A stretch of 64,000 bases of DNA from Massalongia carnosa. Lineage: Eukaryota. Shown here piece by piece: positions 7,136 through 64,000 of this stretch. The notes beneath the pieces are model-generated. The model did not search any database, had not been told where the DNA came from, and worked only from the letters and a program-made list of their open reading frames with translations. The stretch lies in the NCBI GenBank assembly GCA_965645245.1, contig OZ287070.1, forward strand, positions 2,666,001-2,730,000, in the 5' to 3' direction. Position 1 is the stretch's first letter, and each line of letters starts with the position of its first letter. The position numbers were made by a program, and so were the translations under genes.

Positions 7136-8881
7136 AATTTATACCTAAATAGGTTTAATGTGCTTACATAAAAAACCTGAAACCCTGAAAACCTGAAAAC
7201 CCGGCCAAAAAAACTCAACCGTGAAAACCCCTAATATGAGATTCTAATAATGAAACGTACGGGTGAATAACGCAAGCTCGTGTTGTGACAGTGAATATCA
7301 TCATGCGCAGTCTTCAAGCTCAGTTCTTTTTTTCTCCTTTCTTTCTTTCATCATTGTTCTCATCACTATGTCTTCCGGTATGTGATATCATTTATCTATC
7401 TAACAGTAAGAGACTCGTACGAACTGATATATTATGTTCAGTGTCGTCTTTGCCTTCTGCAAAACCTGTACAGTTTGTCTGCCCGGCCCTTCCCCCCTTC
7501 CTTTCTTTGAGCTCAGTCCGACCGATCAAGAAAAAACCGTCCAGTGGATCAATTCCTAGCCTAGAACAACTCAACTCGCCTTATTTAGTAGAATTATCGT
7601 TATCTTCATCCTCTGCCAGTGGTGTTGTACTATTCGAATCCAAAGCAGTATCTGTTGAGTTAAATCAGAAAAGATAAGAGTTATTCAGTTTGACGTACCA
7701 GTCTGCGTCTATATTCATCAAAATCTTATCAACCTGGAACCAGAAACTTCCTTCTTTCTTTTCCATCTGCTCAAGAACAACATAACTCTATCATTCATTG
7801 ATATTAGCTTTTGCAATAAACAAGATGCAAGACAACAATATGAAGGGAAGCCTACCCAACAAGCTGCTGCTTTCTACAAAGACATATCATTGTCCACATG
7901 TTTGGTCTCCGAGTCCACTTCTGACCTTAGGCATTCGGCAAAATCCGCAAGAGGTTTATCGACAACATCTTGACACTTGAGGAGTCGTTCCTTTAGTTTA
8001 GCCTTTTCCTCTATGCAGACTTTCCCCACTAAAGCGACAGCATTGTCTAGAAGTATTAGGTCGGAAGGAAAATGACCTCGTAATGAGGTCTTAACGATAG
8101 TATTAGCTATGGAATACCAAACGAGCCTAACGATAACGTACTAATACTTGCTTGGGATCGCTCCATGTGATTTCTTTGTATCGTTCCAAAGTTAAGCGTC
8201 GGCGTATTATGGGTCTGATTATCTGCAAACATGAGCCACAAGTATTATGCTGAAAGATTACACAAACCGCCCGTAGCTCTGTGGCATATTTTGTAGATTT
8301 GGCTTCCTTTTTAATCCGTGTGATCTCCTTCCTATTTTGCAACTGAAGCTTGTATATAGATGCTAGTTGGTACCCCGTGGAACTCTAATATGTATCATTA
8401 AAAAGCATGTTCTAAATACAACATGAGACATTGACGTGTGCGATTACATACATATTAAGAGAGGGAACAAGTTCATGCCATACCTTGATAAAAGTTTCGA
8501 CAAGGTCGTGATCCAAAGGATCTTCCCGTTGAATCGATCGAAAGATAGCGGCTTGCTCTGATGTAAATACAGGACCTTGCGTAGCAAGCGGTAATCGCGT
8601 AGAGTCGGTTGCTGATCGAGGATGCGGGTTATTTGAAGACGACGATGATGGCGCATTGCCCAGAGAAGTGCCTTTAACAATTTATTTAGAATGGTAAATT
8701 ACTTATATCAACATGGAAATGATTCTTGCCAGGGCTAGGTCCCATGCGGATGTACCGGTCTCCAAAGAAGCCGAAGGGTCTCCATTTCGCATTGAAGGTG
8801 CCGTATTTGAAAGCTCTAGATTGTTCAAGCCAGCATGATTCTAAATATTCAAAGATCAATATATGATAATGGCTGAACAAA

Positions 8882-9404: not shown

Positions 9405-9610
9405 TTGGGTAATCATTACCCAAGGTGACGGTGCTGTAACGTTGGGTAATATGGGATGTTAAACCTAAAGTTGGGTAACCATTACCCACATCATTACCCA
9501 AGGCGACGGTGCTGTAACGTTGGGTAATATTGGACGTTAAAATTAAAGTTGGGTAATTATTACCCACATCATTACCCAAGGTGACCCGTGCTGTAATGTT
9601 GAGTAATATG
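9405..9610. repeat. ~78-bp tandem subterminal array (about 2.7 units) of TTGGGTAAT/ATTACCCAA motifs
   Basis: Repeated CATTACCCAAGGYGAC..GTGCTGTAAYGTTGRGTAATAT units are directly visible. Confidence 0.9.
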
Positions 9611-10098
9611 ACACGGATCTGGTAGTGTAGTGGTGATATTGGCAGGCCACCTACCAATTAGTGTGGTCTAATCGGTTAACACTAAAATATGAGAGAATCT
9701 CATTGCTTTATTTAATTGTGTTATAGACGGCCTGTTCCTCCCTTAACGCAACAGTTCTCTCATGTGGCAATCCCTCTTTCGTCGTCTGCGTCTGCGTCAG
9801 AGCCTCTTACAGTTGAGACAACCGTCTCATTGTCTTCTGCAGAAGACCAACGCTGACGTCCAATTGTCTCGAGAGTTAGCGGTAGCGTAGGTTGGCGCTT
9901 TGAGCATAGCAGACAGGATTGAAGAGTATGTTTTAGATCGTACGAAGTCCCATCACTGAGCTATACTGGCTTTATATAATAGAGAGGAAGAAATGGGAAG
10001 ATAAGAAAGCGTGGAATTATAAACGTACGTTCTTGTTCAATCGCAATGTGAGAAATCGCGGCTGAATTTTTGTTATGAGGGTTTGGTACTTAGTTACA

Positions 10099-10711
10099 GT
10101 CCGCCGTAGTAGAGCCCTGCTTCCCCGTTTTGCTTTTGACGATCCCTCAAAGGGCGTTCCAAGGAAGACGACTCCAATCGTTCTCTCTACGCTAGCCATG
10201 TCGGTACCATTGTGCCTTGACAACGCATTGGAGACCCCCTAAGGCTGTGCGAGACGAAAATAATCGGCCGTTCAGCCTGGACATAGACATCCTATTAGCA
10301 TATTTCTGGTGGAAAGGTAGGGGTGCGCCGATTCCTACGGTTTTGGTTTTCTCGCGGAGACCGATTAGGCCCTGGAACATTGTAGTCGCGTGATCATCAA
10401 TAGTCAAATGCTCCGGGATGAATTTCGGTCCAACAAACGGATAGAAGTGAGCAAAGTCCGCATTGTACCCAAAAGAAAGGATGCGAGCTGTTGGGCAGGC
10501 TTGAGGTAAGAGATCTTGCGGCCACAACAACGATCTACCTCGACCCTCCCATGTCCACGTTTTCACTCTGTCGCCGCCGAGCCCGTGGACGAAGACAAAA
10601 CTGTTTGGTCAGTACAAAGCAACCCGGACGAGAAATGACATCTGGTGCGTACTCTATATTTGCCTCTGGAGAATCAAAGAGGGGGTCGCCTAATCCGTAC
10701 GGTTCGGCCAT
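10099..10711 (-). pseudogene. SesB-like alpha/beta hydrolase (lipase fold), frameshifted and 3'-truncated
   Basis: Spliced translation MAEPYGL..DFVFVHGLGG..TWT..WPQDLLP..ARILSFGYNA..RPIIFVSHSL..GVVFLGTPFEGS; two predicted introns; frame break just after the HSL nucleophile elbow; sequence runs into LTR-like DNA at ~10098. Confidence 0.88.
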
Positions 10712-11043
10712 GCTGGCGTTGTCATCGCAATACTACAGAGGAGTCGTGCTTCAAATTTAGCACTATAACTTATGCGAGATAATCGTGATACCGCCTACAT
10801 GGAGAGGCTTCAACACGTGCATAGCCTTGGCTCTATCAGCCATCTATCCCGCATGATGGCGGCCCTCCATCGGCGAGTCCGTGCCTATATTTATACTTAG
10901 AGATGAACAGTGCTTTTGGAAAGTCTTGAGCGTCGAGTTTCCGACCGAGCCAAAGTGCGGTCCTGAGCACGGTAAAGATAATGGTTTTCAGACTTATTCA
11001 ATATAGCTCCGAGCTCTAATGTCTACAATCTTCTGACGCAGTA
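10712..11043. promoter_or_regulatory. 332-bp divergent (probably bidirectional) promoter region between the hydrolase and the NLR
   Basis: Head-to-head ATGs at 10711 (-) and 11044 (+); central CTATATTTATA element near 10885-10895. Confidence 0.5.
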
Positions 11044-13772
11044 ATGGTCGGTAACACGCTAGCAGTCTCTACAGGCGCGAAGGATTTTGGCACCATTTCT
11101 GGCAACCAAGGCGCTGTGGTCGGTGATGTCTCAGGCCATGCGAAAGTGATTGGTCTGGGTCCTGTTCACATCGATATTGATCTTCTGCTAAATCCTGCTT
11201 AGGCTCTCAGATAAACAATATTGTTCAATATCCAGGCAAGTCGGCATTCGCAATAATATAGCGTTCTGTGAGCCAAGGCTGATAGCATTCTGCGTTTGTA
11301 GAAAGATCCGATACCCCACCAAGCCCATCATCTACTGTTCCTTTCCGCCGCGACCCTGATTTCGTCGATCGCGGAAAGCTACTTGATCAGATCCACGAAA
11401 AGTGCTCCGCGCCAGCGTCAAGGGTAGCGCTTGTCGGCCTAGGCGGCGTTGGGTAAGCCAAAGGGCCTCAGGCTAGTTCTAATAGCTTACTTTCGCAAAG
11501 AAAGTCGCAGCTTGCCATCGAATACTGTTATCGAATCAGAGAGCAGTTGCCGGCGACGTGGGTTTTCTGGATACACGCTAGCAACGCAGCCCGTATCGAG
11601 CAAGGTTATAGAGAGATTGCAGAGCAAGTCAAGATTCCTGGTAGGGGGAACCCAAAGGCGGACATATTCCGGCTAGTTGACAAGTGGTTACGTGACGAGA
11701 AGAACGGAAAGTGGGCTCTGGTCCTCGACAATGCTGACGAAGCTACTGTGCTTTTCGAAACTTGTGTTACGGGCCAGAAGGCGCAGGCCAGCGGCTCTAG
11801 CGGCGGGTTCATGCAATCACTGTTAGCATATCTACCTCAGAGCCGAAACGCCTCGATTCTCATCACCTCCCGGACTAAAAGCGTGGCATTGCGGCTAGCA
11901 GAAGAAAGCGACATAATACCTGTTGAGCCGATGGACGATACACATGCGCGAGCGCTCCTTGAAAAGAAGCTGGGAGAATCGATCGATAGAGATGATACTT
12001 CTGAGCTAGCAGTAGCACTTGAATTTATGCCGCTTGCCATTGTTCAAGCGGCTGCATAAATTCGTCAAAGAGTACCAAGATATTCAGTACGGCAGTATGT
12101 AGATGAGTTCCATAAGAATGATAAAAGAAAAGCAAGTCTCTTGAATCACGAAGGGGGACATCTTCGAAGGGACTTGGAGGCTAAAAACTCAATTATTATA
12201 ACCTGGCAAATTTCATTTGATCATATTCATCAGATCAGGCCTTCGGCAGCTAATCTGCTGTCGCTTATGAGCTTTTTCGATCGACAGGGAATTCCTGAGG
12301 CTTTACTCAAGACACAAAATGAGGCAGGAAATGAACATACGGGAGAAAATGCTGGAGATGACGAACATGATGAACACGAAGACGATAGCGATGAAGATAC
12401 CGTATCCGATTCCAGCGTCGACGATTTTGAAGCCGACATACTTGTCTTAAGAAACTACTCGTTCATCAACATCAGCATGAATGAAACCACCTTTGAGCTG
12501 CACGGGCTAGTGCAGCTAGCCATCAGAAAGTGGCTAGAAGCATCCAATCAGCTCGAAAGATGGAAGAAGCAATTCATCAAGAATCTCAGTACAGTATTTC
12601 CGACGGTACATTACGAGAATTGGACAAAGTGTCAAGCGCTTTTTCCTCACGCAAAGTCGGCAGTAGCGCAGCAGCCAGCTGTCGAAAGCTCATTACAAGA
12701 TTGGGCCTTGATACTATATCACGCTGCGTGGTATGCGTGGGCGAAAGGGAGTTACGTTGAAGCAGCGAAAATGGCCTTAAAAGCAACAAGAACCAGGCAA
12801 AAAGTGCTGGGTCTAGAGGATAAAAAGACATTGGAGAGTATGGCTATGCTAGCCATGGCACACAGCGATGGAGGGCGACGAAAGGAGGCAGAAAAGCTGG
12901 AGGTGCAAGTGATGGGGACGAGAAAGAGGGTGCTAGGGACGGAGCATCCAGCCACGCTGACCAGGATGAGCAACCTTGCGTCGACGTATTGGAATCAAGG
13001 ACGATGGACGGAGGCCGAAGAGCTCGGGGTGCAAGTGATGGAGACGAGAAAGAGGGTGCTAGGGACGGAGCATCCAGCCACGCTGACCAGGATGAGCAAC
13101 CTTGCGTCGACGTATTGGAATCAAGGACGATGGACGGAGGCCGAAGCGCTCGGGGTGCAAGTGATGGAGACGAGAAAGAGGGTGCTAGGGACGGAGCATC
13201 CAAACACGCTGATCAGCATGGGCAACCTTGCGTCGACGTACAGGAATCAAGGACGATGGGCGGAGGCCGAAGAGCTGGGGGTGCAAGTGATGGAGACGAG
13301 AAAGAGGGTGCTAGGGACGGAGCATCCAGACACGCTGATCAGCATGGGCAACCTTGCGTCGACGTACAGGAATCAAGGACGATGGACGGAGGCCGAAGAG
13401 CTGGGGGTGCAAGTGATGGAGACGAGAAAGAGGGTGCTAGGGACGGAGCATCCAGACACGCTGATCAGCATGGGCAACCTTGCGTCGACGTACAAGAATC
13501 AAGGACGATGGACGGAGGCCAAAGAGCTGGGGGTGCAAGCGATGGAGACGAGAAAGAGGGTGCTAGGGACGGAGCATCCAGACACGCTGACTAGCATGAA
13601 CAACCTTGCATTCACGTGGAAGTCTCAAAGCCGCAATGATGAGGCTCTCTCACTGCTAAAGGAATGTTTTCAGCTACGAAAACACAAATTGGGTCCTCAA
13701 CATCCTGATACAGAGTCTTCGCTTAAGTATCTCAATGAGTGGCAGATGGAGAGTTTATCATTGGAATCTTAA
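11044..13772 (+). pseudogene. Fungal NLR: short N-terminal amyloid-like motif, NB-ARC, TPR; single nonsense codon
   Basis: Predicted introns 11153-11202, 11236-11301 (GC-AG) and 11453-11500 give a continuous frame: VPFRRDPDFVDR, P-loop GLGGVGKS, Walker B LVLDNAD, ILITSR, MPLAIVQAA, LHGLVQ, then TPRs. TAA at 12057-12059 stands where Tyr (AAAYI) is expected; the frame continues after it. Confidence 0.93.
12903..13610 (+). repeat. 126-bp near-identical TPR-coding tandem repeats (~5.6 units)
   Basis: Units start at 12903, 13029, 13155, 13281, 13407 and 13533 (42 aa: VQVMETRKRVLGTEHPxTLxxMxNLASTYxNQGRW). Confidence 0.97.
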
Positions 13773-13939: not shown

Positions 13940-14218
13940 CTAGGTTTTGAACTCGCCCGCGGTAGCAGAAAGGCCCAAGCGGTGTGCTCGAACTGTTCCA
14001 AATAGCAGGAAGTCGTCAAACCTTCTCCCGTGAGCATTCGTCTCCGCGCCCTTGTCCAGCAACATCTCCGCCACCTTTTCGTGGTCTAGTTCCGCTGCCC
14101 ATATTAACGCTGTCCACCCGTGCTGAGCTTGTGCCTCCAGCTCTACCAATTTAGCACCCATGATCATGCCCAGGATAACTTCGTGTCCACTGAACGCTGC
14201 AAGCCTGTTGTCATTCAT
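13940..14218 (-). pseudogene. Ankyrin-repeat gene fragment
   Basis: LAAFSGHEVI and GWTALIWAAELDHEKVAEMLLDKGAETNA are ankyrin-type repeats; flanking frames are broken. Confidence 0.75.
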
Positions 14219-14814
14219 GACCGGCTGGTCTTCATATCATGATGAAGCCGGCCATAGCGAGTGAAATCATAGTCGAAATTGATTATCTTCTACCCGGCAT
14301 AGTCCACGAGTCTTTGATACAACTGCATCTTTCAGCTCGAAAGCAGCATTTCGGAAACGAGCCGCCGAATGTTCTGATGTTGCTGTATCTCGAGCCACTT
14401 TTGACTAGTCAGACTAGACACATTGTGCATGATAGGCGGGAGTTATGCTGCTTCTCAACAATGCTTAGAGTTATGATTTTCTTGCACATGTTTTGGCAAC
14501 TTCGGTGAAAAGCATCGCTCGTGCTCCTGATTGAAACCAGTATTATGAATTCGTCCGTTGTAGCGGTTCAGAATCTACTACATTTTAAGGCTTGATAATA
14601 TGACTCTCGCTTGTGACAGGATTGGCGATGATTTATGTACTTTATCGCAAGTGATCAGAACGCCATGGGGCGGCAAGTATATATCATCAAAGAAATCGGA
14701 TTGCGTATCAGCACTCCAGTGTGGAATACGTCCAAGTTAATGGTTTATGCATATGACTGTGATCATGAAGCTTGCTGTACGGCAGACACGTTCACAAAGT
14801 AAGGTCTTGATTCA

Positions 14815-15823: not shown

Positions 15824-17388
15824 TCATGGTAGATTCTCCACTGAATCCCCCTTCAAAACCCCTCCTAGAACCTCCTTGGCGAACCAAGGTTTGTACTCCT
15901 CGTCTACCCATTTCGCAAGTCTTCTTACCACTGTCACGACCTGGTAAATACCCAAGACCGAATTCGTCCGTCCCAGTTCCAAATCTTTCAAATCACTACT
16001 CTATGATCCGCCATTGCCTCTGCAATCATCAATATCCAATTATGACCCTGCACAACCAACAGTGGGAGCACAGGCAAAGACGCGGATCCTTTGGCAAGCT
16101 GCCTTAGCCGTACGAAATGTGCCGAGACCCATATTCCCAACTGCATATGTGCGTCATCTTCATCCACCGCTGCGTGCTTCGTCTCGATGCTTACGGCGAT
16201 AGGCAAGAATCTAATATATTCCGCCATTGTATGATTTATGCTCCCTTTGCCCTCGGCACGTAACCTGAATATAATCTGCTGATGCAATTCCCGGGAAGGG
16301 TCGATCACAAGCGCATAATCGATCATTTTGGTATTCGTAGCCGAACTAGAGGCGGTGGTGGGCAAAAGAGATAAATCATGGATCTTGGCAGTCGTGACGT
16401 CGCAGTACCAAACGCCCTTGACTTTCCACCAACCGCGGAGAGCTAGTCGGAGCAGCGTCGAGTGCACCTCGCTATTCCATTCAGACTCGGAAGACCTTTT
16501 GTTCTCACATTCCATCGCTGCGTCCAGAACCTCAAGCACACGTTCCCAGAAACTCTCATGACTCAACAACCATTGGCAACCGTATTCTGTTCAGGCTCCT
16601 CCGTTCCAGCGGAAAATTTGGTATCGTCCATAAAAAGATTATCTATGATTGTGTTTACTGTTGATTTTATAGCCCCCAGTACCACCGCCTTCCCATTAGA
16701 GATCATTCGTAAATCCCGATATAAGTCTTTCGCTCCAGCTAGTATGGGATAACCAGGCGTCCCAATCGCCTTCATTTCAATTTGGGTGTCAGTAAGCTGA
16801 AGGTCACCCATACGTTTTGTAGGACTACGCGAGCGCGGATTGGTATTACTGGTACTTTTAATCCTGTGGTGACATCACTTGTGGTCGATCTAGTGGGCGA
16901 ATCAGCAGCGAGTAGGTCGGCTGGAGCCGGGAGTGGCTGTAGTAGGTCGGAGGAACTAAAGGCAGCTTCTAGGCGTGGAACTGCGCCTAGGGATTGCGGC
17001 CTGGGACTTATGTCTTGATCTTGGTAAACGGATGAGGAGTCGCGGTGAATAGGGGAAGTTAAATATGACCGAGCTGGGGCAGATAAATGCGCTTTGCGCG
17101 GTGAGATAGTCTTTGGATTTGACAGCTTATCTACTGCTGGCTTCTCGCTGGCTTTCTAGGGAGGGGCTCGACGAGGTGAAAGTTTGTCACGATCCATTAT
17201 GTTCCCGCTAGTCTTGCGAGGGCGTAATGCGAGTTGCTAGGTTTCTTTGCACCGGACAATCGACAGTTTCTCGGAATGATAATCTTTAGGATGATCAGGA
17301 TGGCCCTTGAGCCAGTTGAAACACGGCTGATATCTACAATAGGTGCCTCAATATGGAGATTTGAACGTGAGGAAGGCATGATGTACAA
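15824..17388 (-). pseudogene. Fungal PD-(D/E)XK nuclease-like gene, frameshifted
   Basis: SESEWNSEVH, KMIDYAL, SINHT, PIAVSIETK, QLGIW, LPLLVVQGHNW, LGIYQ..RRLAKW; frame breaks near 15990 and 16565; 5' limit uncertain. Confidence 0.8.
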
Positions 17389-24461: not shown

Positions 24462-25898
24462 TCATCTACTCATTCCCAGCTCATCATTCTTTGTGCTACC
24501 TGTTTCTTCGCTGGATTTTGGGTTCTCGGCTTCATTCTCTTCTTCGTCGCTTGTATCATCTTCATCATCTTCATCATTCTGACCTTTAGCCGTAGCTTTG
24601 ACTTGATCAGAGATGACTGCTAGCAAGATCTCATTGTTTCCATCAGCCGCATTTTCCTTTCTTGCACCCTTCTTGTCCTCCTCGTCCTCCATCACCTTAT
24701 TCATCAGATTTTCCCACTCGTGCCCTAACTCTTCTACTAAGCCAAGGAGCATATTCTTGGGTAGAAATCTTCCTGGGGTGCCCCAGTACCACTTGTCAAA
24801 TTCCCTTTTCAGAGTTTCGCCTGTACGTTGTTCTCTCCAGGCCTTACGAAGAATCTGAACGCAATAATGAAAAAATGCATATCGAGCTCGAGGCCGAAAA
24901 TCACTTCGAAACTCGACATTAGTTCCGTCTAGGTCTCTCCATGTTTGATCCGAGCCAGGACGAATCATGAGGTCCATCTCAGAGTAATTATGGTCGATGA
25001 TGAAGATCTTGTACTCCTTCGGCTTGGAAGCGTTCCAAAGTGCTACCTGTTCTCTTGAGGGTAAATCTGGAAGCCGAGGGACAATTGTTAAAAAACCTTT
25101 GTCGAAAATGTCTTCCACCGCCGTGCTTAAAATTAATCCGTTAAGCGGCGAAAATAGTTCGGGAGTGTCTGTAGGACCGAAAATTGCGTCCATGGTATCT
25201 TGACCATGCATATAGGCAAAGAGGTGGGATGCCGATGTAAACCTCGCGTCAAACCAATCCTTTACAATAGGACACCAAAGGAACCTCTTTCGAGGATCAG
25301 GATCCTTCGAGTTGTATACATCGATCATATTGGTCCTGAACTCGCCTTGAGCGGAGGAGCTGCGTTTCCCCGCACTCGTCGAAGTGATTCCGAGTCCAAG
25401 CTTGCTTGTCGTGAAAAGTTTGACGAAGCTTCGACGGAGCGACCTACCCTTGTCCGCTTTGTTTCCCTCTCTCTTCAACCTATCAGCTTGTCGTAAACAT
25501 ATCTTTTCGTCAGCTTGCTGCGCCCGAAGTTCTTCGAGTAGCTCAGCTGCCTTCCTGCTTGAAGCCCATTTCACCTCGTCTTCCCCACCGGTCAAAAACT
25601 CATTCAGGGATATCTTCCTTTTTAACTCGGTGACACCTTGCATATGACGGGCCACCTCTGCTGCGCGTGTCCAGAATCTTGCAACGCGAGGGAGGTTAGT
25701 GATTGATCAGGCTAGGGATTCTAATTGGACAGATTCCTACGGTGTGTCAAAAGAGCCTTGAGGTTTGAGCGCCTTTCTTGCCCTCTTGAGATCATTGTTT
25801 GCCTCGGCCTTCTCCTTCTCGAGATTGTCTAGTTGTCGTTTACTTGAGCTCCGCGTTGGTATCTGGAAGGGCAGGATGGGCTCATTAGGGGAAGTCAT
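24462..25898 (-). CDS. HNH endonuclease-domain protein (~457 aa, two exons)
   Basis: ATG 25898; intron 25678-25740 (GTAGGA..CTAAC..AAG) joins in frame; WCPI..ASHLF..NGLILS..EDIFDKG and FRPRARY motifs; acidic C-terminal tail. Confidence 0.85.
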
Positions 25899-27105: not shown

Positions 27106-30100
27106 TTGATTTGATTTGATTATTCTTACGCCGTTGTGTCACCGGCCGAAGGCCGGCCCATGCGGGAGATGCTATATAAGCTATGTAATAAGTAGAAAAC
27201 CCAAAGGTGAAAAACTACTCCTGCGTATGCGCTTCATCGGGGGTTCGCCGCTCCCGCGGATTGATTCCTATATCTCGAAAATCTGCGATACCTGTTTTTC
27301 AACTGAAGAGAGACTGCCCGGCTGCTGTTCAAGCAGTTGCGTGGCAATGGAATACTGTGTTAAAATACCTGTGCGCATGAGCCACGCGGTTACTACTTTG
27401 AGAGCTTTGGGTTCGGTGATTAGCTTGCGGTAGTCTGACGAGCCTGCCGTTCGTAGCATGTGCGTTCTGTGTTCGTGCAGTCTGCAAAACATGATTACAT
27501 GTTTGGCTGTTTGTAAGATGCTTCCGCAGGGACATGCCGCCGAGTTCACACCTGGGACCTTGCGCCGATATAGAAAGTTGGCCAGTCCGATTTTTTCCGT
27601 TCTTATCTGTGTTGCTAGTGAGCTTTGCGCTTTGTCTAGTAACTTGTGTGCGTTAAGCCTTTTCCTGTGTATAGGCGCCTGTTGTGCGATCGTGGGATAT
27701 AACGTGTGTTTTGCTTGATATGCTTTCCACTTGTTGATCCACTGATTCTTAAAGTGCTTCTTTATTATCCCGTCTCGTTGGTTCTGCGTCGTTACTTGCG
27801 CTGTGCGTTGTCTCTTCTGTGCCTCGTCGATCGTTGTCCAGGGAGAGGGAGAGGGTTGATCCAGTTTAACTATTTTCGGTGCGTCTTTCGTCATCTTTTT
27901 ACCCATTCTCGTTTACGAGTTCCTGGTGTTTTCTCTGCGACTCGCGATTGACCTCTTTTACCTCTGAGTTTCACTTGAATTCTATTGCACGCCTGCTTTA
28001 TGATTTTTTCCTGTTCGCTGTTCGAGATTCTGGATCTCGTTTTTGCTTGTAAGCGGTCTATATGTTGCGTTAAGGGAGGGATGTGGGTTTCTGGCTGTAA
28101 TAATTCAATTGGGGTAGCCTTGTACGCTCCGGCTATGACTCGTAAACACTTGTTTTGTATGACTTCGAGTTTTCTTCTTGATTCGACTTTGGCTTTCTTT
28201 CTTGCTTCGGCTGGCATGTGCCATGCTATCGAGCCGTGCGACATGGCGGGGCGTATCACTGCTGTGTACACGTGGCGGGCTCGTAGGAGGGTCGCCCCCC
28301 AGGTTGAGGCTGCGATTTTGCTCAGTTCCATTGTTTGTCTCGTCATTTTCTTCTGAATTTCCTTGTAATACGCTGCCCAATCGAGTCTAGTGTCAATTTA
28401 TACTCCCAGGACTCTTATCAAAGTCTTGGTCTTCAGGATCTTGCCTCTTACCGCGAAGGATGCGTCCAGGTTGAATTTCTTTGGATTCTTTGCCAGGTGT
28501 ATCAGCTCGTATTTGTGTGGCGCGAATACGGAGCCGTGGCGAGCGGCCCATCGTTCGCAGTCGTCGTGTATTTTTTCCAGCGTTTTGCAATTCTCTTCGG
28601 TGGACTTTCCGTACGCCAGTATATTGACGTCGTCTACGAAACCCATGCCCGCTGCGTTGGTACCTGGTCTATTGCAAATATCGAGTAAGTCTGCATTATA
28701 AAAGAGATATAGAATGGGAGACAAAGGAGATCCTTTGCGGAATTCCTATACTCAGCCGGAATGCGGTGGCTGTTCGTTGATTGATCGTGAGAGTGGTTTC
28801 TCTTTCCTTGAGGAAGCTTTCTGTCCATTTCGTGATCCATTCCGGAATTTTTCTCTTTCTCAGCTTATGAATGAGCCTACGATGTGACACCGTATCGAAG
28901 GCGCCTGAGACGTCGATACTAAGAAGCGATGCTACTTTGTCTTTCCCTTGATTCCAGACCGTGTGTACCTGCTCCGTGAGCAGTTCGAGCGCTGTGTCCG
29001 TTGCGCGGCCTGGTCTTGCTCCCACTTGCGTGTCTGGAATTAATCTGAGTTTTTCCGTTAAATAGCTTATTTTCCTCGCTATAATGGATTCTAGCATTTT
29101 CCAAGCGTGTTTAGGAGCGCAATGGGTCTCCACGCCTTAGGATCCGCGTAATTACTCTTTCCTGGTTTCTTCAGTGTGATGATGTTGGCGATTTTGAACG
29201 CTCGAGGATGATAACCCTGCTCTGCGCAGGCCTAGAACAGTGGTGTCAGCAACTTGATCAGATTTTCCGAGCATGCCTTGAGAATTCTATTTGTGATCCC
29301 GTCCGGACCGGGTGCCTTGTCTGGTTTCGGCCTACGAAGCGCTGCCGCCACTTCTTCTTTCGTGATCAGGATGGGGCAGTCTGGGGTTTGCGGGTACGTG
29401 TATCCTACGATGTCGCTGAGATCTGCGTCCAGGGGTGGGGGGGAAGAAAGATTTCTTAAGCATTTTCGCTTTCTCTTCGAAGGTATTGGCTATCGTATCA
29501 GGGTCCTGGGTTGGCTAGGGGGGGCATTTTTGGGATTTCTCTGATGGTGTCACTTTTGTTTTTACCCCACTTTGCTAGACGGAAGAGTTCGGATTGGGAA
29601 ATTGTGATTGTGGCTATTTGCTGTTTGAAGCAAAGATTTTTTGCTTTACCGATAAGTTTTTGTTTCTTATCGTTTGCTTTAACGTAGTTTTTCCAATCCG
29701 CTAGGTTTCTTTCCGCGGTCCAGATTCTTCGTAGCCTACGAGTCTCTCTTGTTGCGTCGTCGCATTCCTTATTCCAAAAAGGTTTCGCCTCCGGGCTTGG
29801 TCTGGCCCATGGTACTGCTTTATCTACGATTTCCTTGAGATAATCCTGGATTTCCTTGCTATATTGATCGATTTCCTCGATGCTGTGCGGCATGCGTGGT
29901 GCGGGGGTTCTTTTCTCGATTTCTTTTACCTTGTCCATGTTTAGAAGTTTCCAGGCCCTTCGTGGGAGCTTTGTCAGGGGTTCGCAGGAGAGCCGCAGTC
30001 TCGTTGAAATCGGTATGTGATCGGAATCTTGATTCATCTCCGGGACCGTGGTGCAGTGTTCCAATCTCTCCGTTAAATCTTCTGTCATGAACACCAGATC

Positions 30101-32707
30101 AATGGTGCTGGTCGAGTTTCTCGTTTCCCATTTAATTGTTCCTGTCAGCCAATTTAGTGGTCAAGCAGTAAGCGATATCTAGCTCGGATACGGTAATCTA
30201 TTAACCGAATCCCAACATTCTAGTAACTGAGAGAATGGGTGGAAAATCCTTTCAATTCAAGCAATCATCACCTCAATTCCAAGTGTCAATTCCAAGTGTC
30301 AATTCCAAGTGTCAATTTCAAGTGTCTATCTAAAACGTAAATCATTCTCCAATCACCAAGAGCTTAGATCAATAAATCAAGCTCAATAGTTTCTCTTGGA
30401 AGTGTGAGAGATTTTTGTTTTCTATAATCTCCAGCAGTTGTTCGGACGCCTCGTGCTGTCCTCGTACCCCTGCTCCACCCCAGTATGGGTGATGGAGATT
30501 GAAGTCTCCTAGAAGAATATGCTCTCCGGGGTCTTCTAGTTGGTGTAATACGGTCGATAGGGTGAACGGGCTAGTTATCGAGGAAGTGGATAAGGGCGAT
30601 GGATTGTACACGTTGTGTATGTGAATCATTTTTGTTCCGTTTCAGATTCTTACTCTTATTTTCAATGTGCTCATATCCTTTGACGGCTATTCCACTTCCC
30701 AGCTTTCTGGGTCTATTTTGTTATTGATATAAAAGCAAACTCTCGTGTCGCCCCCTGGTTTATAAAGAAGATGGAACCCACTTTGATAGGGGTTAAGAAG
30801 TAGGGACGTCGTAGGGTTTTTCCACGGTTCTTGAATAGCTATGATGTCGAAATCCTGTGTTCTTTTATCTGACAGCAAGGGTGTCAGTGTGCCTTTGGCA
30901 CTTTTCCTGATATTGTACTGCAGTATCGTAAGGGTTTCTGTGTTCTTCATAGCATTTTTTCGTTGTTGAGTTGTATCTCGTTGGTGTTTCTTGCTCTAGT
31001 CATCGGATGTCCTCTTTTCGGTTTGGCGAAGACCGACTCTCTGTTTTCTGGGTTCATTATTTTTGCCCTCGCCGACCCCCATTCTTCCCTCCCTCGTAGA
31101 ATCCTCCGTTCTTGTGCTTCTTGTGGTGATAACGAGCGCGATCGAGTGACTCTCAGTTCTCTAATTGATCTCACACTTTCTTTTCTCTTACTTATCGTCT
31201 TCGTGGTTTCTGTCATTTCCACTTCGTTTTCCGCCTCTTCTCCTTCCTGCGGCTCCGCCTCGTTGGTGATGTGTGTCGATGGGAACTCATTTTGTGAGGC
31301 GTCGGTGGGTTTGTTTGATTGGTCTTTTGATTCCCATGACCTGCTTCGGTTTCGTCCTCGACTACGACTTCCATACGCCCCCCCTGCGCTTGACTGAGGA
31401 TTGCTTTATTTACTTCGGGTGGGGGCGGCACTGCGTACAAGCGCCGGCGTGATTCTCTTGTGATTTCCGTGCGGTGTTTTTTCTCTTTCCTGATTTGGCA
31501 TTCCGCTGCCCACGCTGGGTGTCCCTTGTCCCCGCATACTGCGCATCGTAGGGACCTTCCGGTTCTGCTGCATGGGCAGTTTCTGCTGTCTTGCCTTCTG
31601 ACGCAGTACCCGCAGACGGTGGGATTTTTGCAAAACTTCGCGATGTGTCTGTATTGCTGACAATTGGAGCATTGCGTGAGCTTGCAGCCGGCTTCGAAGA
31701 GCTCGCATGTTTTTATTTCCCCTTCGTCCGCCAGTCCTACGAGGATCAAACGATTGGCCATTTCCGCAGTTTCTACCTCAATGTGTAACGAGGCGTAGCG
31801 CTTGTTTTGTTTGCGGGCTCTGGCGCTCCAGGCTACTCGATTGATTTTCAGTCCTTCATGCAATCCTGCGTTTTCCTTTGTCAAGTATTCCAATGCTTTC
31901 GCTTGCTTTGACCCTCTCACTTCGTTCATTTTTACTCCGTGAGCTAGAATTGCATAGCCTTCTTTGCGTATCGTCGCTGATGCAGCAACTCTCTTTATCC
32001 ATTCCGAGTGTGCTTGCAAGGTTTCCTTGACTTCCGGTGTTGTTACGTGAATTTTTAGATATCCACTTAGTAGTCGTCGGATGCCCGTCACCTCTTCGTT
32101 GGAGACTCGTAGGGCGTCTACTATTTCCTTTGTGGTATTTTTACCTAGGGCTTCCTGCTCCTTGGGGTCTTCTATTCTCACAATGATTTCCTTCATTTTC
32201 TCTTCTCTCTGAGGGTGTTTTCCTCGTTGAGGCCTTGATTCTTCACTTCGGTTTCCTGTCCGCTTTTACGCTTTCCTGCTGCGACCGCCGCGTAGCTGAG
32301 AGCCTTGCCGTTATTCTCGCCCTGTTTTTCTATCTTCCTCCAATCTTTGCTGAATATCCTGCAATGTATCTTGAAAATTTTCCTGCGTCGACGCGTCGAG
32401 CGCGTCGCGTTCCGATGAAGTTTTTTCTATGAACTCAACAAGATCGAGTATCCAACGCCTCGCCTCCGCGCCGGCTACAATCACATCTGCTCTTTCCAGA
32501 AATTCTCTTGCTTTGCTTGTTAGCTCGTGAGTTTCACTTATCTCTTGCCCTTGGGCGTCGACACTCGTTGTCGTATTCATTTTCCTCGATCGATAGTAAT
32601 GATTTAGGATGTGATAATAATATAATAATGTGATAGTAAATCTGATAGTAATTTAAATGCTTCTTGGAGGGAGAGGATTAGTTAAGCGAGCGACTAGCCG
32701 ACGATTA
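27106..32707 (-). mobile_element. Tad1-like LINE, near full length, degenerate
   Basis: ORF1 with Cys-rich knuckles (QCSNCQQYRHIAKFC). ORF2 with AP endonuclease (LQYNI, IAIQEPW, LLGDFNLHHP, DSDH), RT (DVSGAFDTVSH, GFVDD) and C-terminal CPCG..HVIMFC. 3' tail of AATCA repeats at 27106-27120. Confidence 0.93.
30143..30388. repeat. Solo LTR in the LINE endonuclease region, with internal 13-bp tandem repeat
   Basis: TGTCAGC...GCTCAATA; flanks GTTCC/GTTTC; about four CAATTCCAAGTGT units. Confidence 0.75.
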
Positions 32708-32963: not shown

Positions 32964-34907
32964 TTAAAGAAAGAAGGCAGCGTCAAGAACGCCAACCGTG
33001 CATAATGACCATAAAAACTTTCCTCTTAATAGCCTTCCAGTTGCGCCCGTGAAAGAGGCCGCGACTATGGATCCAGAGTTCCCATTGCCAAGAATCGAGC
33101 TTCCGATAGAGCTCACGCTTGAGGAGCCCACGGCTAACCTCTGTGCTGCCGTCAGCGCCATGGTGTTAGTTCCCATTACAACAAACGACTCTCCAGGAGT
33201 GAGAGAAACCGGGGTTCCAGAGACTGTAAGTGCAGGACCACCCGGGATGAGAGTTTGCCCGCCGAGCAAAAATTGCGGCGTGACCTGCGTTTGATAATAT
33301 GACTCAGGTCTTATGGTCACCGTGCTGGAGTTGGTGGTCGGGAATGTATCGGGCGGGGCGAGAGGAGTGGGATTGTCGGAAATCGTAGCTATTGCAACTC
33401 CTGATAGCAATATTTGAGTTTCGGTGACATATTCCCCGCCCGTCTCAACTTTGAAAGTATTCAGTTTGACTGTTATGATCTCAGGAAGCTCCTGTGAAAA
33501 ATGGGAGGGGGTTTTTAAGTTAGCCGTTAGAGATAAAGTATTAATATTGCTAACTGTAACGACAGCAGATGGAAGGTGAGAAATAAGAATTCCGAAAACA
33601 GTGTTAAATGCAGCATCTGACGTAAGAGTTTGACTTGCAAAAGTGTATCCACCGTCTAATATTGCCGTAAAATCATCATTCTGGATGATGAGCGTTTTAG
33701 AACTCAGCCCTAAGTTAACGCCAGCGAAACCTAACGAAGGTAGAGGCAAGCCTTTCAGAAAAGCTGTGCTAACCGATCCTCCAAGAAACAACGGTTTGAC
33801 TAGAGACAAAAGATTCTCTACCAATAGCAACCGGTACCACTACTGAGTCTATATTTGATGGAGCTTCTTGGTTCGGTAAAATGCTTGCATTGTTCTTAGT
33901 ATTGAACGACTTTTCTAAATTTTTGGACGAGTGAGCCATTGAAGGCATTGCGGCAGATTCAGTTCTGTCTCGAGAAGTCATTGCAGTACCGGACCTATAT
34001 CCGACAACTGAGGATGTAGTCTCGATACCCACGACATTGTCGTCATGGTTAGAGAACTGTGAGTTAGTTACGAGGATCTTGATGATGGTGGAAGTGGGTG
34101 TACTGGCGAAGGCAGATGAAATAGTGGGATATACTGTCGGAAGGCTCGCAGGTATTGATGGCGAAGCATTCAGGGCGGCAGATTTCTTAAACGTCGATGT
34201 GTCTTCATAAGTTGTAGATGTTGCGGTAAGGCTTGAGACACGTACTAGATACCCGGGAGGGCTGGCCCATTCAGTGTCACATGTTGCTTTTATGTCAAAG
34301 AAATCAGAAAGTTCAAGGCCATTGGAAATATCTCTGCGTAGAAGAAAGGGCCGAGTTCGCGCCTTTTCTATGTTTAAACACTCGATCTTGCCAGCGCTAT
34401 TGTTAACAGGCAAGTGCGAATAACTCTTGATTGTTGTATAGCCTGCATAGCCTGTTGGATACCTCCTTTGAAGAATTATCAACTCTACTGTAAATATAAA
34501 TCGAAAATGAGATTACTTACAAAACATATTCTATGTCACCCATAGTTGTCGTGATTATCGATCCTGAGACGATTTGAGCAGCATAGTTTACGCTGCTGGG
34601 AAGTGAAAATCTTTCAGCTTGAACGATCGAAGTTCTTGTGACATTCGATGAGTTGTTGAAGATTTTGACGATTGTTGCAGCAGTATAGGTAAATTCCTCT
34701 GAGTGCCATTCGAATCCGAAGTATTCCATAGATTCTTTACATCTGTGACATGCAGACGCAGTCAAGTTATCTGTTAGTGTAACTAAGAATTTCTGTTAGT
34801 AATTGACTTAAATATTTACAAGATAATATTCAACCTGTAGTATCAAACGTCATAGCAAGGCAGATGGGTATGACAAAAAAACCGAAATTGACGACAGATC
34901 TGAACAT
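32964..34907 (-). CDS. Ser/Thr-rich secreted, probably GPI-anchored cell-surface protein (frame break near 33800)
   Basis: Signal-like MFRSVVNFGFFVIPICLA, two predicted introns, S/T-rich body, GGQTLIPGGPALTVSGTPVSL repeat, C-terminal SFTGA plus hydrophobic tail. Confidence 0.65.
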
Positions 34908-40176: not shown

Positions 40177-43100
40177 AATGCAGGCGAGCTGTCGGGGGTT
40201 TGTCTGCGGCGTGGAGTTCGAATAGCCCGAGGAAGAAAGAAAAGCGCGCTAGTGCCAATGCGTCACTTAATCTTGGATTAAGTAACCGATTAGGCCTAGT
40301 GCGCCGTTCTGACGCTAAATCCAAAGTAGCTGCAGCTTGCATCCTTAGCGGCAGGCTTAGGGTTGGAACATCCACTAGTCCGCATTGGGAGTTTGTACCC
40401 AGTTTTGATATTGGGCAGGAGTTTCGGTTATCACGCAAGTATGATTTATTTTCGGTTTCGCAAGCAAGAGATAGAGATAGGGAGTTTGTTCGGGTTGATG
40501 GAGCATACAAGAGAAAGGGTGATAAGGTGCGCCCGGCGGAAAGATGGATTTCTGACGGTTCAATGCCTGGGGGCATGCCTGATTGGAGAGAAAGAGCTTT
40601 GGAGAGGGAAAGAGCGATGCCTAGGTTGCCCAACGAAAAATATCCAGGGTGGTTGATACCGAAATTCTCACGTATGGCGCGAGGAGCACGATTGACTCCA
40701 GAAAGATTGCAAAAGATTCGAGTAGGGGATGGGTTGTCCATGGAAGAGAGAGACCTTTTGGCCGAAGTCCTACACGGTAGGGAAGCTGCACTCGCTTGGG
40801 ACTTTTCAGAGATGGGACTGGTCCGACCAGAAGTGGCGCCTCCGCAGGAGATCCGTACGATCGAGCATAAGCCTTGGCAGCATCCTGGTTTCGCTATTCC
40901 AAAATCACTACAGGAGAAGACCATCGAAATGGTAAAAGAGCGCCTTGCGATCGGAGCAATATAACCTTGCCATGGTCATTATCGCAATCCTTGGTATGTC
41001 ATAGGGAAAAAGGAGAAGGGAAAATATAGGCTCATCAATGCCTGCACGGAAATGAACAGAGTTACCTTGCGGGACGCCACTTTACCTCCTATGGCGGACG
41101 ATTTTGCTGAGAACTTCGCCGGATGTTCGGTAGCGTCGTTGGTGGACTGGTTTTCCGGATATGATCAAATTTCGCTAGACCTCAAGAGCAGAGACTATAC
41201 AGCTTTTCAGACGGCACTAGGACTCATGAGGATGACTCGACTTCCTCAAGGAGCCACCAATTCCGTGGGACAATTTGTTAGGATAAATAATCAAATCCTG
41301 CAGGCTCAGATACCTCATAATGCGGAACCTTTCGTGGATGATGTGGGAGTCAAAGGGCCTAAGACAAAGTATGACAATGAAATGGTCGCCCCTGGCATCC
41401 GCCGATTTATAAAGGAACATCTTCAGGCGCTGGACGAGGTTCTAGCCGATTATGAGAGAGCTGGTGTGACTATCTCGGGGGCAAAATCACAATTTGCCAT
41501 GCCTGGGATCCGTATTGTTGGTTATATTTGTGACTATGACGGTCGACATCCGGATACTGCCAAGGTCATAAAAATTGTTGATTGGCCTCCTTGTCAGGAT
41601 GTTACCGGTGCACGAGCTTTCATCGGTGTTTGCGTGTACTATCGTATATGGATCTTTGAGTTTGCCATCGTCGCTGAGCCTATCTACCGTCTGTTCAAAA
41701 AGAAGATCCTTTTTGTTTGGGGAGTAGAGCAACAAGAAGCCATGGATAAGCTGAAACTTGCGTTGACTACCTCTCCGGCACTGCGGTCGCTGGATTATTC
41801 GATAGGAGCTGGGCTCATCATTTTGGGAGTGGATTCGAGTGGTAAGGGATGGGGTGCCGTCTTGATGCAGGAGTGGGAGGGCAAGCGACACCCTTCGCGA
41901 TATGAAAGTGGTATTTGGTCCGACACCGAAAAGTCCTATGATGCGACGAAGAGAGAGTGTAGAGGGGTCTTGAAGGCTCTCAAGAAGGTCCGCAACTATC
42001 TTTATGGAATACATTTCTTGTTGGAGACAGATGCTTCGGTGCTTGTGGCTCAATTAAATCGTGGAGGGACGGATTTGCCAGGTGCGCTTGTTACCAGATG
42101 GATAGCTTGGATTCAGCTCTTCGACTTTGACGTGAAGCACGTTGCGGGTAAAAAGCATACAGCAGCAGCTGGACTGTCTCGTAAACCCCCTACCGAAGAC
42201 GATATACGGGAGAGAGAGATGGAAGAAGACATAGAAGATTTTATTGATGCAGAATTAGGCTCTCTAAGAGTTGCCCTATTTCCGTTACAGACGAACTGCC
42301 CTTAGAGGAGAGTTATTCAGAAAAATCTCAACAAATCGCTGCCTATCTTACGAGTTTACAGAGACCGGCCGGCATGGGAAGAAAAGAGTTTTACAAGTTC
42401 AAGAAAGAAGCGATGAGATACTGTGTGCAGGGGAGAAAGCTGTTTCGACGAAACAACAAAAATGTCCCCATACGAAGAGTTGTAGATGACGACAAGGAGA
42501 GACAGGAGATTATGGAGAAACTACATGATGAGAGTGGTCACAAAGGGAGAGAAGGGACCTACCGTAGGATTGCTGACCGCTACTGGTGGGAGGACCTTCA
42601 TGCTCATGTCAAGGCCTACGTACGAAGTTGCGAGAGATGTCAAATGCGGGACCCTACACAGCAGGAAGAAGCTCTACATCCTACCTGGATAAGTCTTTGT
42701 TGGGCCAAAGTAGGTCTGGATGTTGTGTACATGCCTTCAAGGGAGGGCAAGAAGTTCCTGGTGGCTGCTAGAGATGATCTTTCAGGCTGGGTAGAAGCTC
42801 GGGCAATAGGAAATGCCAATTCGTTGTCGGTCGCTAGGTTCCTTTGGGAAGATGTCATCTGCCGTCATGGTTGTTTTGGCCGCTTGATTGTAGATGGAGG
42901 GCCGGAAAACAAGGCTTTAGTTGAAGAACTCACAGCGCGATACGGAATTAAGAGGGTCCAGGTGTCTTCTTATCACCCACAGGCCAATGGTATGATCGAG
43001 AGGGGCCATAGACCCATTGTTGATGCACTGTCCAAGATGACCGATGGAGGGTTGGGAAATTGGGTCGAGAACCTACCCGCTGTATTATGGGCTGACCGTT

Positions 43101-43699
43101 CCACTGTCAAGAGTACCACCGGCTTCTCCCCATATTATGTGACCTGTGGCAGTGAACCTGTTCTACCGATTGAGTTGGAGGTACCTACCTGGCGTATTCT
43201 TCCTTGGAGTGAGGTTCATACAACTGCCGAGCTATTAGCTATGAGAGCTCGTCAGCTTCAGAGGCGGGAGGAGGATCTTGAGGAAGCTGTGCATCATTTA
43301 CAGCGCATGAGGATGGAAGGAAAAGAGGAGTTTGATGATGCGCACCTAATTAGAGCCAAAGAGCTAAAGAAAGGAGACTTAGTACTGCTCCATGACACCA
43401 AGAGAGATGCGGTGATGTCTACCTCCGTCAAACTGGCCTATCGATGGCTGGGACCATACAGGATACATGAAGCTAAACCCGAGAAGGGGACATACCTTCT
43501 AGCAGAATTGGACGGGACGGTCTTGGCTAACACCTTTGCGGGCAATCGGTTGAAAGAATTCCACCCCAGACAAGACCTTACTCGTATTACGACTCCGGAG
43601 CATGACACGGAAGAAGTCAACATTGATCCCAGACAGCATGCAATTCCAGAAGGTTGGCCGTTAGCGGTAGTTGTTCCTCCGATCTCCGGCATAGCATAG
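40170..43699 (+). pseudogene. Gypsy pol (RT, RNase H, integrase) with a stop at 40962 and a break near 42290
   Basis: DWFSGYDQ, RLPQGATNS, FVDDV, GVDSSG, ETDA, LHDESGH..CERC, VDGGPE, YHPQANGMIERGH, WLGPY. Confidence 0.93.
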
Positions 43700-59594: not shown

Positions 59595-59635
59595 TTTTGA
59601 TATTTGATTGTGCTTGTTGGATCCGTCGTATCAAG

Positions 59636-63300: not shown

Positions 63301-64000
63301 TTGGAGTCCTCGTTCCCCCAAGCGTTTAAGAACCTTCAAGACGTGATCTGAATGTTCTTCCTCATTATCACTGTAGATCAAGACGTCATCCAGATAAGCA
63401 GTACAAAAGACGTCTAAATATTCCCGAACCGAATTATTTATATAACTCTGAAAAGTCCCTGGAGCATTGCATAAACCGAAAGGCATGACCAGATATTCGA
63501 ACTGGCCATATCTTGTGTTAAAAGCGGTAAGCCATTCATGTCCTTCTTTTACTCGAAGACGATTGAATGCCGTAATAACGTCTAGTTTCGTGAAGCGTTT
63601 TGCCTGCGAGAGTTTTCCGAGCGTCTCGTTAATTAGGGGAATAGGATATCGATTCTTTACTGTGATGGCATTCAAGGCTCGATAGTCCACACAAAATCTC
63701 AGTCCACCACCTGCTTTTCGAACTAGAAGGACTGGAGCAGCTGCTGTCGACGAACTGGGACGAATGAATCCCTTTCCCATATGTTCGTCAATATACTTCT
63801 TGACAGCTTCCAACTCCTGTTCTGACATAGGCTTATAGTTCCTGACATAAGGGGGTTCTTTTCCGTCCATGAGGTTAATCTCGTGATCCTCCTTACGATG
63901 TTCCGGTAGTTCGTCTGCTTTATGCTTCATAAAGACTTCTATCATGCTATGATACTCTGAGGGAATTTTCTTCAACAATTCTTCGCGGGAGTACTCGGGT
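60362..64000 (-). mobile_element. Chromovirus-type Ty3/Gypsy element, 3' part (RT, RNase H, integrase, chromodomain, 3' LTR), frameshifted
   Basis: LRFCVDYRALN, YLDDVLIYS, ETDSSD, HPETDGQTE, EWEILETVDCR..VQYKATYIG..WQP; PPT AAGGGGGGGTAG; LTR 60362-60568. Confidence 0.95.

Follow-up and report, generated by a model that had tools for sequence, protein, structure and literature searches.

A conserved motif without the central glutamine of PP, on two small exons at the head of a NOD-like receptor gene of Massalongia carnosa, a candidate amyloid signalling motif

Fungal amyloid signalling motifs have been counted as four (or five) sequence families (PMC12261475). Among those considered here are PP, a pseudo-palindrome centred on Gln (GxQxG) with the consensus FxGx(x)NxGLQLxGxNxGxL, and sigma, which consists of three copies of the submotifs GxGxQFNxx / GGTQNINT (PMC3321046, PMC5485727); the Pfam model of PP, PF17046, carries the misnomer SesB (PMC12261475). 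In one earlier case, het-eN, a motif of this kind was hidden behind an unnoticed 5' intron (PMC3321046). Here we describe a motif of 47 residues encoded at positions 11044-11235 of a 64,000-nucleotide stretch of the Massalongia carnosa genome (contig OZ287070.1, positions 2,666,001 to 2,730,000, forward strand; hereafter, the window). The motif forms the N-terminus of a NOD-like receptor (NLR), in the same slot that is occupied by PP in most of the closest paralogues.

The two exons at 11044-11235 open a four-exon NLR gene of the NB-ARC/TPR type from an ascomycete, which is organized as follows.

11044..11152, + strand: exon 1, 109 nucleotides (nt), consisting of the start codon (ATG at 11044), 36 codons and 1 nt; encodes the motif core (P0001)
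11153..11202, + strand: intron 1, GT-AG (GTCTGG...TTAG), 50 nt, phase 1
11203..11235, + strand: exon 2, 33 nt, symmetric (phase 1-1); encodes G/SQINNIVQYP, the motif tail rich in N, Q and Y
11236..11301, + strand: intron 2, GC-AG (GCAAGT...GTAG), 66 nt, phase 1
11302..11452, + strand: exon 3, a Pro/Ser linker, the lead-in VPFRRDPDFVDR and the start of Walker A; aligns with homologues
11453..11500, + strand: intron 3, GT-AG (GTAAGC...AAAG), 48 nt, phase 2, within the Walker A codons
11501..13772, + strand: exon 4, NB-ARC, DUF7779 and eight TPR_10 repeats (Pfam)

When joined by script, the four exons yield an 854-codon reading frame that is in frame with the NB-ARC/TPR NLR and contains one internal stop. 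The frame of exon 3 includes no ATG and is closed just upstream by a TAG (11298-11300); therefore, an upstream start exon is required. Similarly, the alternative GT donor at 11239, three bases on, leads into stops when read by eye, so that the GC donor of intron 2 is required. When the annotated NLR of Lobaria immixta (MCJ1268442.1, P0006) was compared with the window using tblastn, exon 1 was found at 83% identity, and gaps of 22 and 16 residues fell exactly at introns 2 and 3; exon 4 is 68.8% identical to this protein across 849 residues. Exon 2 was recovered in the window by tblastn with P0006 and with P0135, a protein of Cenococcum geophilum. The first-pass annotation of this DNA, which was made from the letters alone, had proposed two small exons, with both introns in phase 1 and a GC donor in the second, and this splicing model is borne out by the joined frame and by the homology to P0006. 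Skipping of exon 2, with a single intron at 11153-11301, would also preserve the frame and is one of 16 such single-intron alternatives.

The spliced Walker A motif reads GLGGVGKS. In the Pfam comparison, TPR_10 matches the NLR protein in eight stretches (E 1.6e-107), and DUF7779 is also recognized; the NB-ARC match on the exon fragment is weak (E 0.0044), as is that of NACHT, and PF00931 is precomputed on many of the homologues. The NLR body has 1158 homologues at E<=1e-10, and its closest named relative comes from the lichen fungus Lobaria immixta. High internal repeat conservation is a trait of fungal NLRs, and it fits a TPR-coding array at 12884-13609 (+ strand) with a period of 126 nt, 5.8 copies and 95% matches. 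An upstream open reading frame (ORF) of five codons (ATG...TGA, 11019-11036) lies 8 nt before the NLR start codon.

The motif is conserved well beyond this gene. When 1.84 billion representatives were searched exhaustively by phmmer for the 37-residue exon 1 peptide (P0001), 10 proteins were detected at E<=0.001; nine of these are ORFs of 43-86 amino acids that share the start Met and in which the alignment ends at residue 37, that is, at the end of exon 1. These independent short ORFs are identical to the window in 21-35 of the 37 exon 1 residues (57-95%). Past residue 37, the four most distant ones keep 0-2 of up to 15 positions, and the five closer ones keep 12/15, 8/15, 7/15, 5/15 and 4/12 positions of the intron 1 read-through; in these alignments, the exon/intron contrast is clear for about half of the nine only. 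The read-through itself (V-H-I-D-I-D-L-x-L-N) is retained in the closer relatives, at up to 12/15, to an extent beyond expectation for a 50-nt intron, which may reflect branch-site or splice signals, or recent common ancestry. The tenth protein, P0131, a bacterial-type repeat protein (phmmer E 1.6e-4), was rejected as a family member, given its different repeat unit and context.

A hidden Markov model (HMM) of the family matches window exon 1 at E 1.4e-22 and finds the motif at residue 1 in nine of nine full-length members, some strong (E<=2e-20: P0006, P0111, P0089, P0087, P0134 and P0135) and some weak (E 6e-4 to 2e-3: P0029, P0133 and P0013). The full-length carriers are the following.

Lobaria immixta, P0006 (MCJ1268442.1): motif at residue 1
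Dendryphion nanum, P0111: motif at residue 1
Lindgomyces ingoldianus, P0087 and P0089: motif at residue 1
Patellaria atrata, P0029 and P0133: motif at residue 1, weaker
Clathrospora elynae, P0013: motif at residue 1, degenerate
Byssothecium circinans, P0134: NACHT(NPHP3_N)-ANK receptor, motif at residue 1
Cenococcum geophilum, P0135: NACHT(NPHP3_N)-ANK receptor, motif at residue 1

The carriers belong to the Lecanoromycetes and Dothideomycetes (class checked for four of the seven species); two of the nine matches in the profile search with the family are NACHT-ANK NLRs. Across 17 aligned cores of 37 residues, M1, T10, F15, N21, G23, G27, S30 and G31 are invariant, V occupies column 25 in 16 cores and I in the remaining one, and K13 and D28 are each present in 15, with the central pattern I-S-x-N-x-G-x-V-x-G-D-x-S-G. 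In P0006, P0111, P0089 and P0135, the core is followed by the exon 2 tail, S/T-Q-x-x-x-N-x-x-Y-P. The first-pass annotation had named a lack of conservation among homologous NLRs within its grounds for refutation, and the motif is indeed conserved, in the nine short ORFs as well as in full-length NLRs. As judged by these matches, the peptide is not a chance ORF; it is a member of a conserved sequence family that has no Pfam model. No description of the motif was found in those parts of the literature that were searched; the profile models of the 2022 survey (PMC9815663) were not among the sources compared.

The motif appears to be mobile. It heads two NLR architectures, NB-ARC-TPR and NACHT-ANK, and known amyloid motifs are likewise found on different NLR classes (PMC3321046). 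Like the members of that class, it is a short conserved N-terminal extension in the place of the effector domain, carried by NLRs that differ in NOD and repeat type. In P0087 and P0134, the motif stops at residue 37, and in P0135 it stops after the exon 2 tail; by protein comparison, these ends coincide with the phase-1 exon ends of the window gene. In a quick maximum-likelihood tree of NB-ARC domains (70 rows, with 67 of the 137 sequences left out that had no Walker A match or fewer than 250 residues after Walker A), the eight family members require seven changes, at least four of which are forced by well-supported branches, and the members show no more clustering than randomly shuffled labels would give (the count was as low in 117 of 500 shuffles); gene-model errors in public N-termini could inflate this scatter. 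One family member, P0089, is the sister of the PP-bearing P0081 with a support of 100. Together, the two architectures, the junctions at exon ends and the scatter on the tree agree with the first-pass suggestion of a shufflable module, and the sequence comparisons fit an exchange of the motif among NLR paralogues as a swappable module on small exons with phase-1 introns.

We lean, by a small measure, towards reading the motif as the receptor-side half of an amyloid-type signalling pair because the place it occupies is taken in related receptors by an amyloid signalling motif already known. Of 59 related NLRs whose N-terminus is short, 31 have the strict PP pattern, NxGxQxG, in this slot and seven have the window motif. 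The G/V/N/S/I/Q composition, the invariant G and N residues and the PP slot match what the literature reports of NLR-side amyloid motifs (PMC5485727, PMC3321046, PMC9815663), and it is by this analogy that we infer amyloid behaviour. Under this scenario, the 47-residue N-terminal extension would replace the effector domain of the NLR, and ligand-driven oligomerisation of the receptor would bring the N-terminal tails together. The gathered tails would then stack into a beta-arch (cross-beta) fold, and this fold would act as the template for a matching motif on an effector of the cell-death or lipase type whose gene lies elsewhere in the genome. A more far-reaching proposal, which we put forward as possible and somewhat doubtful, is that the motif represents a fifth family of fungal NLR-side amyloid motifs, a 'Q-less' N-x-G-x-V-x-G-D-x-S-G family of Lecanoromycetes and Dothideomycetes that is encoded on phase-1 mini-exons, has repeatedly moved between NB-ARC-TPR and NACHT-ANK receptors and has no adjoining effector, so that it would act through an unlinked partner or from NLR to NLR.

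In the peptide itself, G (8), V (7), N (4), I (4) and Q (3) account for 26 of the 47 residues. The peptide had been described as Pro-free until its end, which is correct for the window copy, where residue 47 is the sole Pro, and does not extend to the family, in which 11 of the 17 members have a Pro at position 6. The pseudo-repeat that had been noted is visible, with best offsets of 21 and 11, and does not rise above chance (shuffles, family-wise P 0.20 and 0.41, respectively); one of the five members tested reaches P 0.049 in shuffles. The AlphaFold2 (AF2) monomer of the 47-residue Lobaria form, modelled with the family alignment, has a mean pLDDT of 47.9 and a pTM of 0.16, and this low-confidence model contains a single hairpin (24-27 and 33-37); as modelled, the N-terminal tail is a monomer without a confident fold. 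A predicted complex of four copies of the 37-residue core, for which the alignment was not used, scored 0.01 against a mark of 0.32, and no inference was drawn from it. A lookup of P0001 in the ESM Atlas returned no usable match.

Several observations weigh against an amyloid signalling role. The internal repeat of the motif is not significant, and the profile search of the PDB with the family yielded no amyloid or RHIM chain, the single match being an Ig-like domain at E 7.4. No carrier of the motif at the C-terminus was found among the nine matches of the profile search or the 10 matches of the exhaustive single-sequence search, both of which are weak for this aim. The 64-kb window holds no second copy of the motif, the next-best HMM match having an E of 0.43 in a set of 3035 six-frame fragments. 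When the window was searched by tblastn with the 47-mer, only the motif itself was detected, followed by a match at 33334-33372 with an E of 0.31. Nor is there a HeLo, SesA, PNP_UDP or patatin gene among the 30 larger window ORFs scanned. In the 2022 grammar-based survey, the Cenococcum member, OCK93014.1, appears as unannotated, not clustered and 'noasm' in the available part of the data (PMC9815663), so that, as far as this part goes, the survey pipeline either did not rate it as amyloid-like or left it unclustered; six further accessions and KAF1950654 (file 2 only) were not found in the part of the survey supplements searched. The likeness to PP is marginal in profile comparison, a lead and not demonstrated homology. 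Finally, the window copy has a premature stop, and its frame is thus interrupted.

This last point leads to the best-surviving alternative, on which the evidence is, in our judgement, evenly balanced, namely, that the NLR in the window is a relic, a pseudogene from which the motif is no longer made in a working receptor. This is compatible with the amyloid signalling reading of the family. An in-frame TAA (12057-12059, + strand) at model residue 284 falls in the NB-ARC/winged-helix region, at a position where 99 of the 101 homologues that match the local pattern have Tyr, and because of this premature stop, the window copy is likely to be a pseudogene or null allele of recent origin, provided that the TAA is genuine. 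The divergent neighbouring gene is frameshifted, and the region is filled with transposons, which would suit a decaying locus. However, this is a single defect in 854 codons, and the 570 codons past the TAA are still open, which implies a lesion of recent date, a polymorphism or an error in sequencing; no damage is seen in the motif exons or at any of the splice sites. The first-pass annotation had overlooked both the in-frame stop of the NLR and the frameshift of the divergent upstream gene.

An unlikely alternative is that the conserved peptide is not amyloid at all and serves as a docking or adaptor peptide, or as a short beta-hairpin or glycine-zipper-like element (G23, G27 and G31 form GxxxGxxxG) acting directly once the NLR has oligomerised. 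Such a role would be in line with the failure to find an effector partner in the window or in the profile search, with the hairpin in the low-confidence AF2 model, with the sole PDB profile match, a strand-turn-strand of the Ig-like domain at chance level, and with the 'noasm' entry of the family member covered by the available part of the survey. However, the peptide is too polar for a membrane helix (in addition to K13 and D28, in 15 of 17 cores each, N21 and S30 never vary), it corresponds in slot and size to the PP motif of the paralogues, and it is found on two NLR classes in the manner of the known amyloid motifs (PMC3321046).

We give still less credence to the possibility that the motif is a diverged member of the PP/RHIM type, in which the N-x-G-x-(Q)-x-G-x-x-x-G scaffold was kept and the central Gln changed to Val, and which would signal to HELLP- or SBP-like effectors. 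When the family was compared with 31 PP N-termini using hhalign, columns 19-31 aligned with the PP core, with S-x-N-x-G-x-V-x-G-D-x-S-G over d-x-N-x-G-x-Q-x-G-x-x-x-G; N21, G23, G27 and G31 of this stretch are invariant in 17 of 17 members. With the family HMM, the same weak match is seen, covering residues 13-26 (14-26 in two) in five PP-pattern paralogues and one near-PP paralogue (E 0.7-4.3 in a set of 136), and the slot is common to both motifs in close paralogues. Nevertheless, the hhalign match is weak (probability 1.5%, E 0.035, 13 columns), the central Q that defines PP (PMC3321046, PMC5485727) is absent in 17 of 17 members, and PF17046 is silent on all 11 family members searched at E<=10, whereas both PP controls match (E 1.1e-7 and 1.1e-4). 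Moreover, the NB-ARC domains of P0089 and its sister P0081 are close, and yet the N-termini of the two cannot be aligned by eye, which looks like replacement rather than gradual divergence. Finally, the proposition that the motif is spurious, a chance ORF in front of an NLR that truly starts at another site, draws on the facts that the gene model was derived from sequence alone and that 16 single-intron alternatives preserve the frame, and can be dismissed with near certainty, given that exon 1 is conserved from the Met onwards in nine short ORFs and eight annotated NLRs from two fungal classes and that exon 3 lacks a start codon.

Returning to the reading as an amyloid signalling motif, we compared the family with the described systems one by one. 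PP (PF17046, 'Ses_B'; PNT1/HELLP/SBP of Chaetomium globosum, RHIM-related) is similarly located at the extreme N-terminus of NB-ARC-TPR NLRs, in the same slot in the closest paralogues, and the N-x-G...G...G spacing is the same in the window family. Unlike PP, the window family has V (16 of 17 members) or I (one of 17) in place of the central Gln, PF17046 does not match it, its core comprises 37-47 residues compared to about 17-20 in PP, and no HELLP- or SBP-type partner with the window motif was found in the window or by the profile search. Sigma (PF17106; het-eN/sesA/sesB of Nectria haematococca) shares with the window motif a length of about 40 residues, an abundance of G, N and Q, the location at the NLR N-terminus and a place behind a 5' intron that was first missed in annotation (PMC3321046), and a remnant of a hydrolase-like ('SesB-like') gene adjoins the window NLR. 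However, sigma submotifs A (GxGxQFNxx) and B (GGTQNINT) are not in the family consensus when read by eye, PF17106 does not match, and the neighbour of the window NLR carries no recognisable motif.

HET-s/HRAM (PF11558; NWD2/HET-S) is also NLR N-terminal and combines conserved G and N with hydrophobic residues in alternation, and the window peptide aligns best with itself at an offset of 21 residues. In contrast, HRAM NLRs have one unit of 21 residues compared to the core of 37-47 residues here; the offset of 21 has a family-wise P of 0.20 in the window peptide, other offsets score best in the remaining four members, and there is no Pfam match. No amyloid-motif model of Pfam, those for sigma (PF17106) and HET-s (PF11558) included, matched any of the 11 family members at E<=10, and P0001 and its 60-amino-acid ORF had no PF17046 match at E<=1. 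The first-pass statement that the motif is not an obvious match to known ones was accurate as regards PP, sigma and HRAM, with the Pfam models of all three silent on the motif and the PP controls positive. As for PUASM, whose partner has a PNP_UDP domain, no PNP_UDP ORF is among the 30 larger window ORFs scanned. The unassigned motifs NLR17, 19, 20 and 34 of the 2022 survey (PMC9815663, Table 1) share with the window family that they are conserved, compatible with the grammar and N-terminal, and that an effector-side copy is not known; as listed in the available part of the survey, NLR34 differs in coming from Fusarium, Tuber and few other species, with no Dothideomycetes or Lecanoromycetes. 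Without a Pfam model, and without a label for the member covered by the survey, the motif is probably a new one of this kind.

If the amyloid signalling interpretation is correct, a further motif family, with carriers among lichen fungi and Dothideomycetes, without the PP/RHIM Gln and without a linked effector, would widen the sequence space for templating from NLRs to effectors. Such a family would likewise illustrate clearly how exon shuffling exchanges a module of immune signalling. In practice, motifs of this sort escape gene callers when their exons comprise just 36 and 11 codons; of the 120 related proteins listed, at least 30 start downstream of Walker A.

The NLR gene sits in a transposon-rich region of the window, in the following surroundings.

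10017..10711, - strand: divergent hydrolase-like remnant (DUF676, 'SesB-like' alpha/beta hydrolase), ATG at about 10711, truncated, broken frame
13940-14236, - strand: isolated ankyrin-repeat fragment, directly behind the NLR
15991-16590, - strand: PDDEXK_12 nuclease ORF (E 4.7e-51)
24465-25706, - strand: HNH_2 ORF
284-2177, 27271-30160, 40965-43696, 45653-47389, 54930-59630 and 61133-63999: transposon genes

The upstream remnant looks like a DUF676/SesB-like hydrolase. In this remnant, IIFVSHSL (10264-10241) and GGLQCVVKA (10239-10213) are read in different frames, one base apart, with the shift at 10240, so that the H-S-L / G-G-L elbow is split between two frames; GVVFLGTPFEGS (10175-10140) is found in the third frame, which puts a second shift before 10175 in the three-frame reading. 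Pfam had nothing at E<=10 for the remnant, and the PDB gave chance matches only (E 0.16-1). An Atlas lead points to DUF676 clusters (scores 0.92-0.93), and the hydrolase reading combines this lead with the GxSxG elbow, which we take to be a mark of hydrolases. A family-HMM match at 8110-8244 (- strand, E 0.43), downstream of the remnant, was treated as chance. The decayed region downstream of the remnant includes a tandem repeat (9412-9610; 78 nt, 2.5 copies, 89% matches).

The transposon genes comprise copia-type RVT_2, a 1567-amino-acid polyprotein, a LINE-like reverse transcriptase (RT) with an endonuclease, a gypsy-type RT/RNase H/integrase and a Tc1/mariner-like transposase. The ankyrin-repeat fragment behind the NLR may be another NLR remnant. 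Apart from the window, two NLR paralogues from lichen fungi, P0092 and P0102, share a different N-terminal pattern, G-S-I-A-L-A-G-x-x-P-N-L-x-N-V-x-I-G-T, which differs from both PP and the window motif and may represent one more NLR N-terminal motif outside the present classification.

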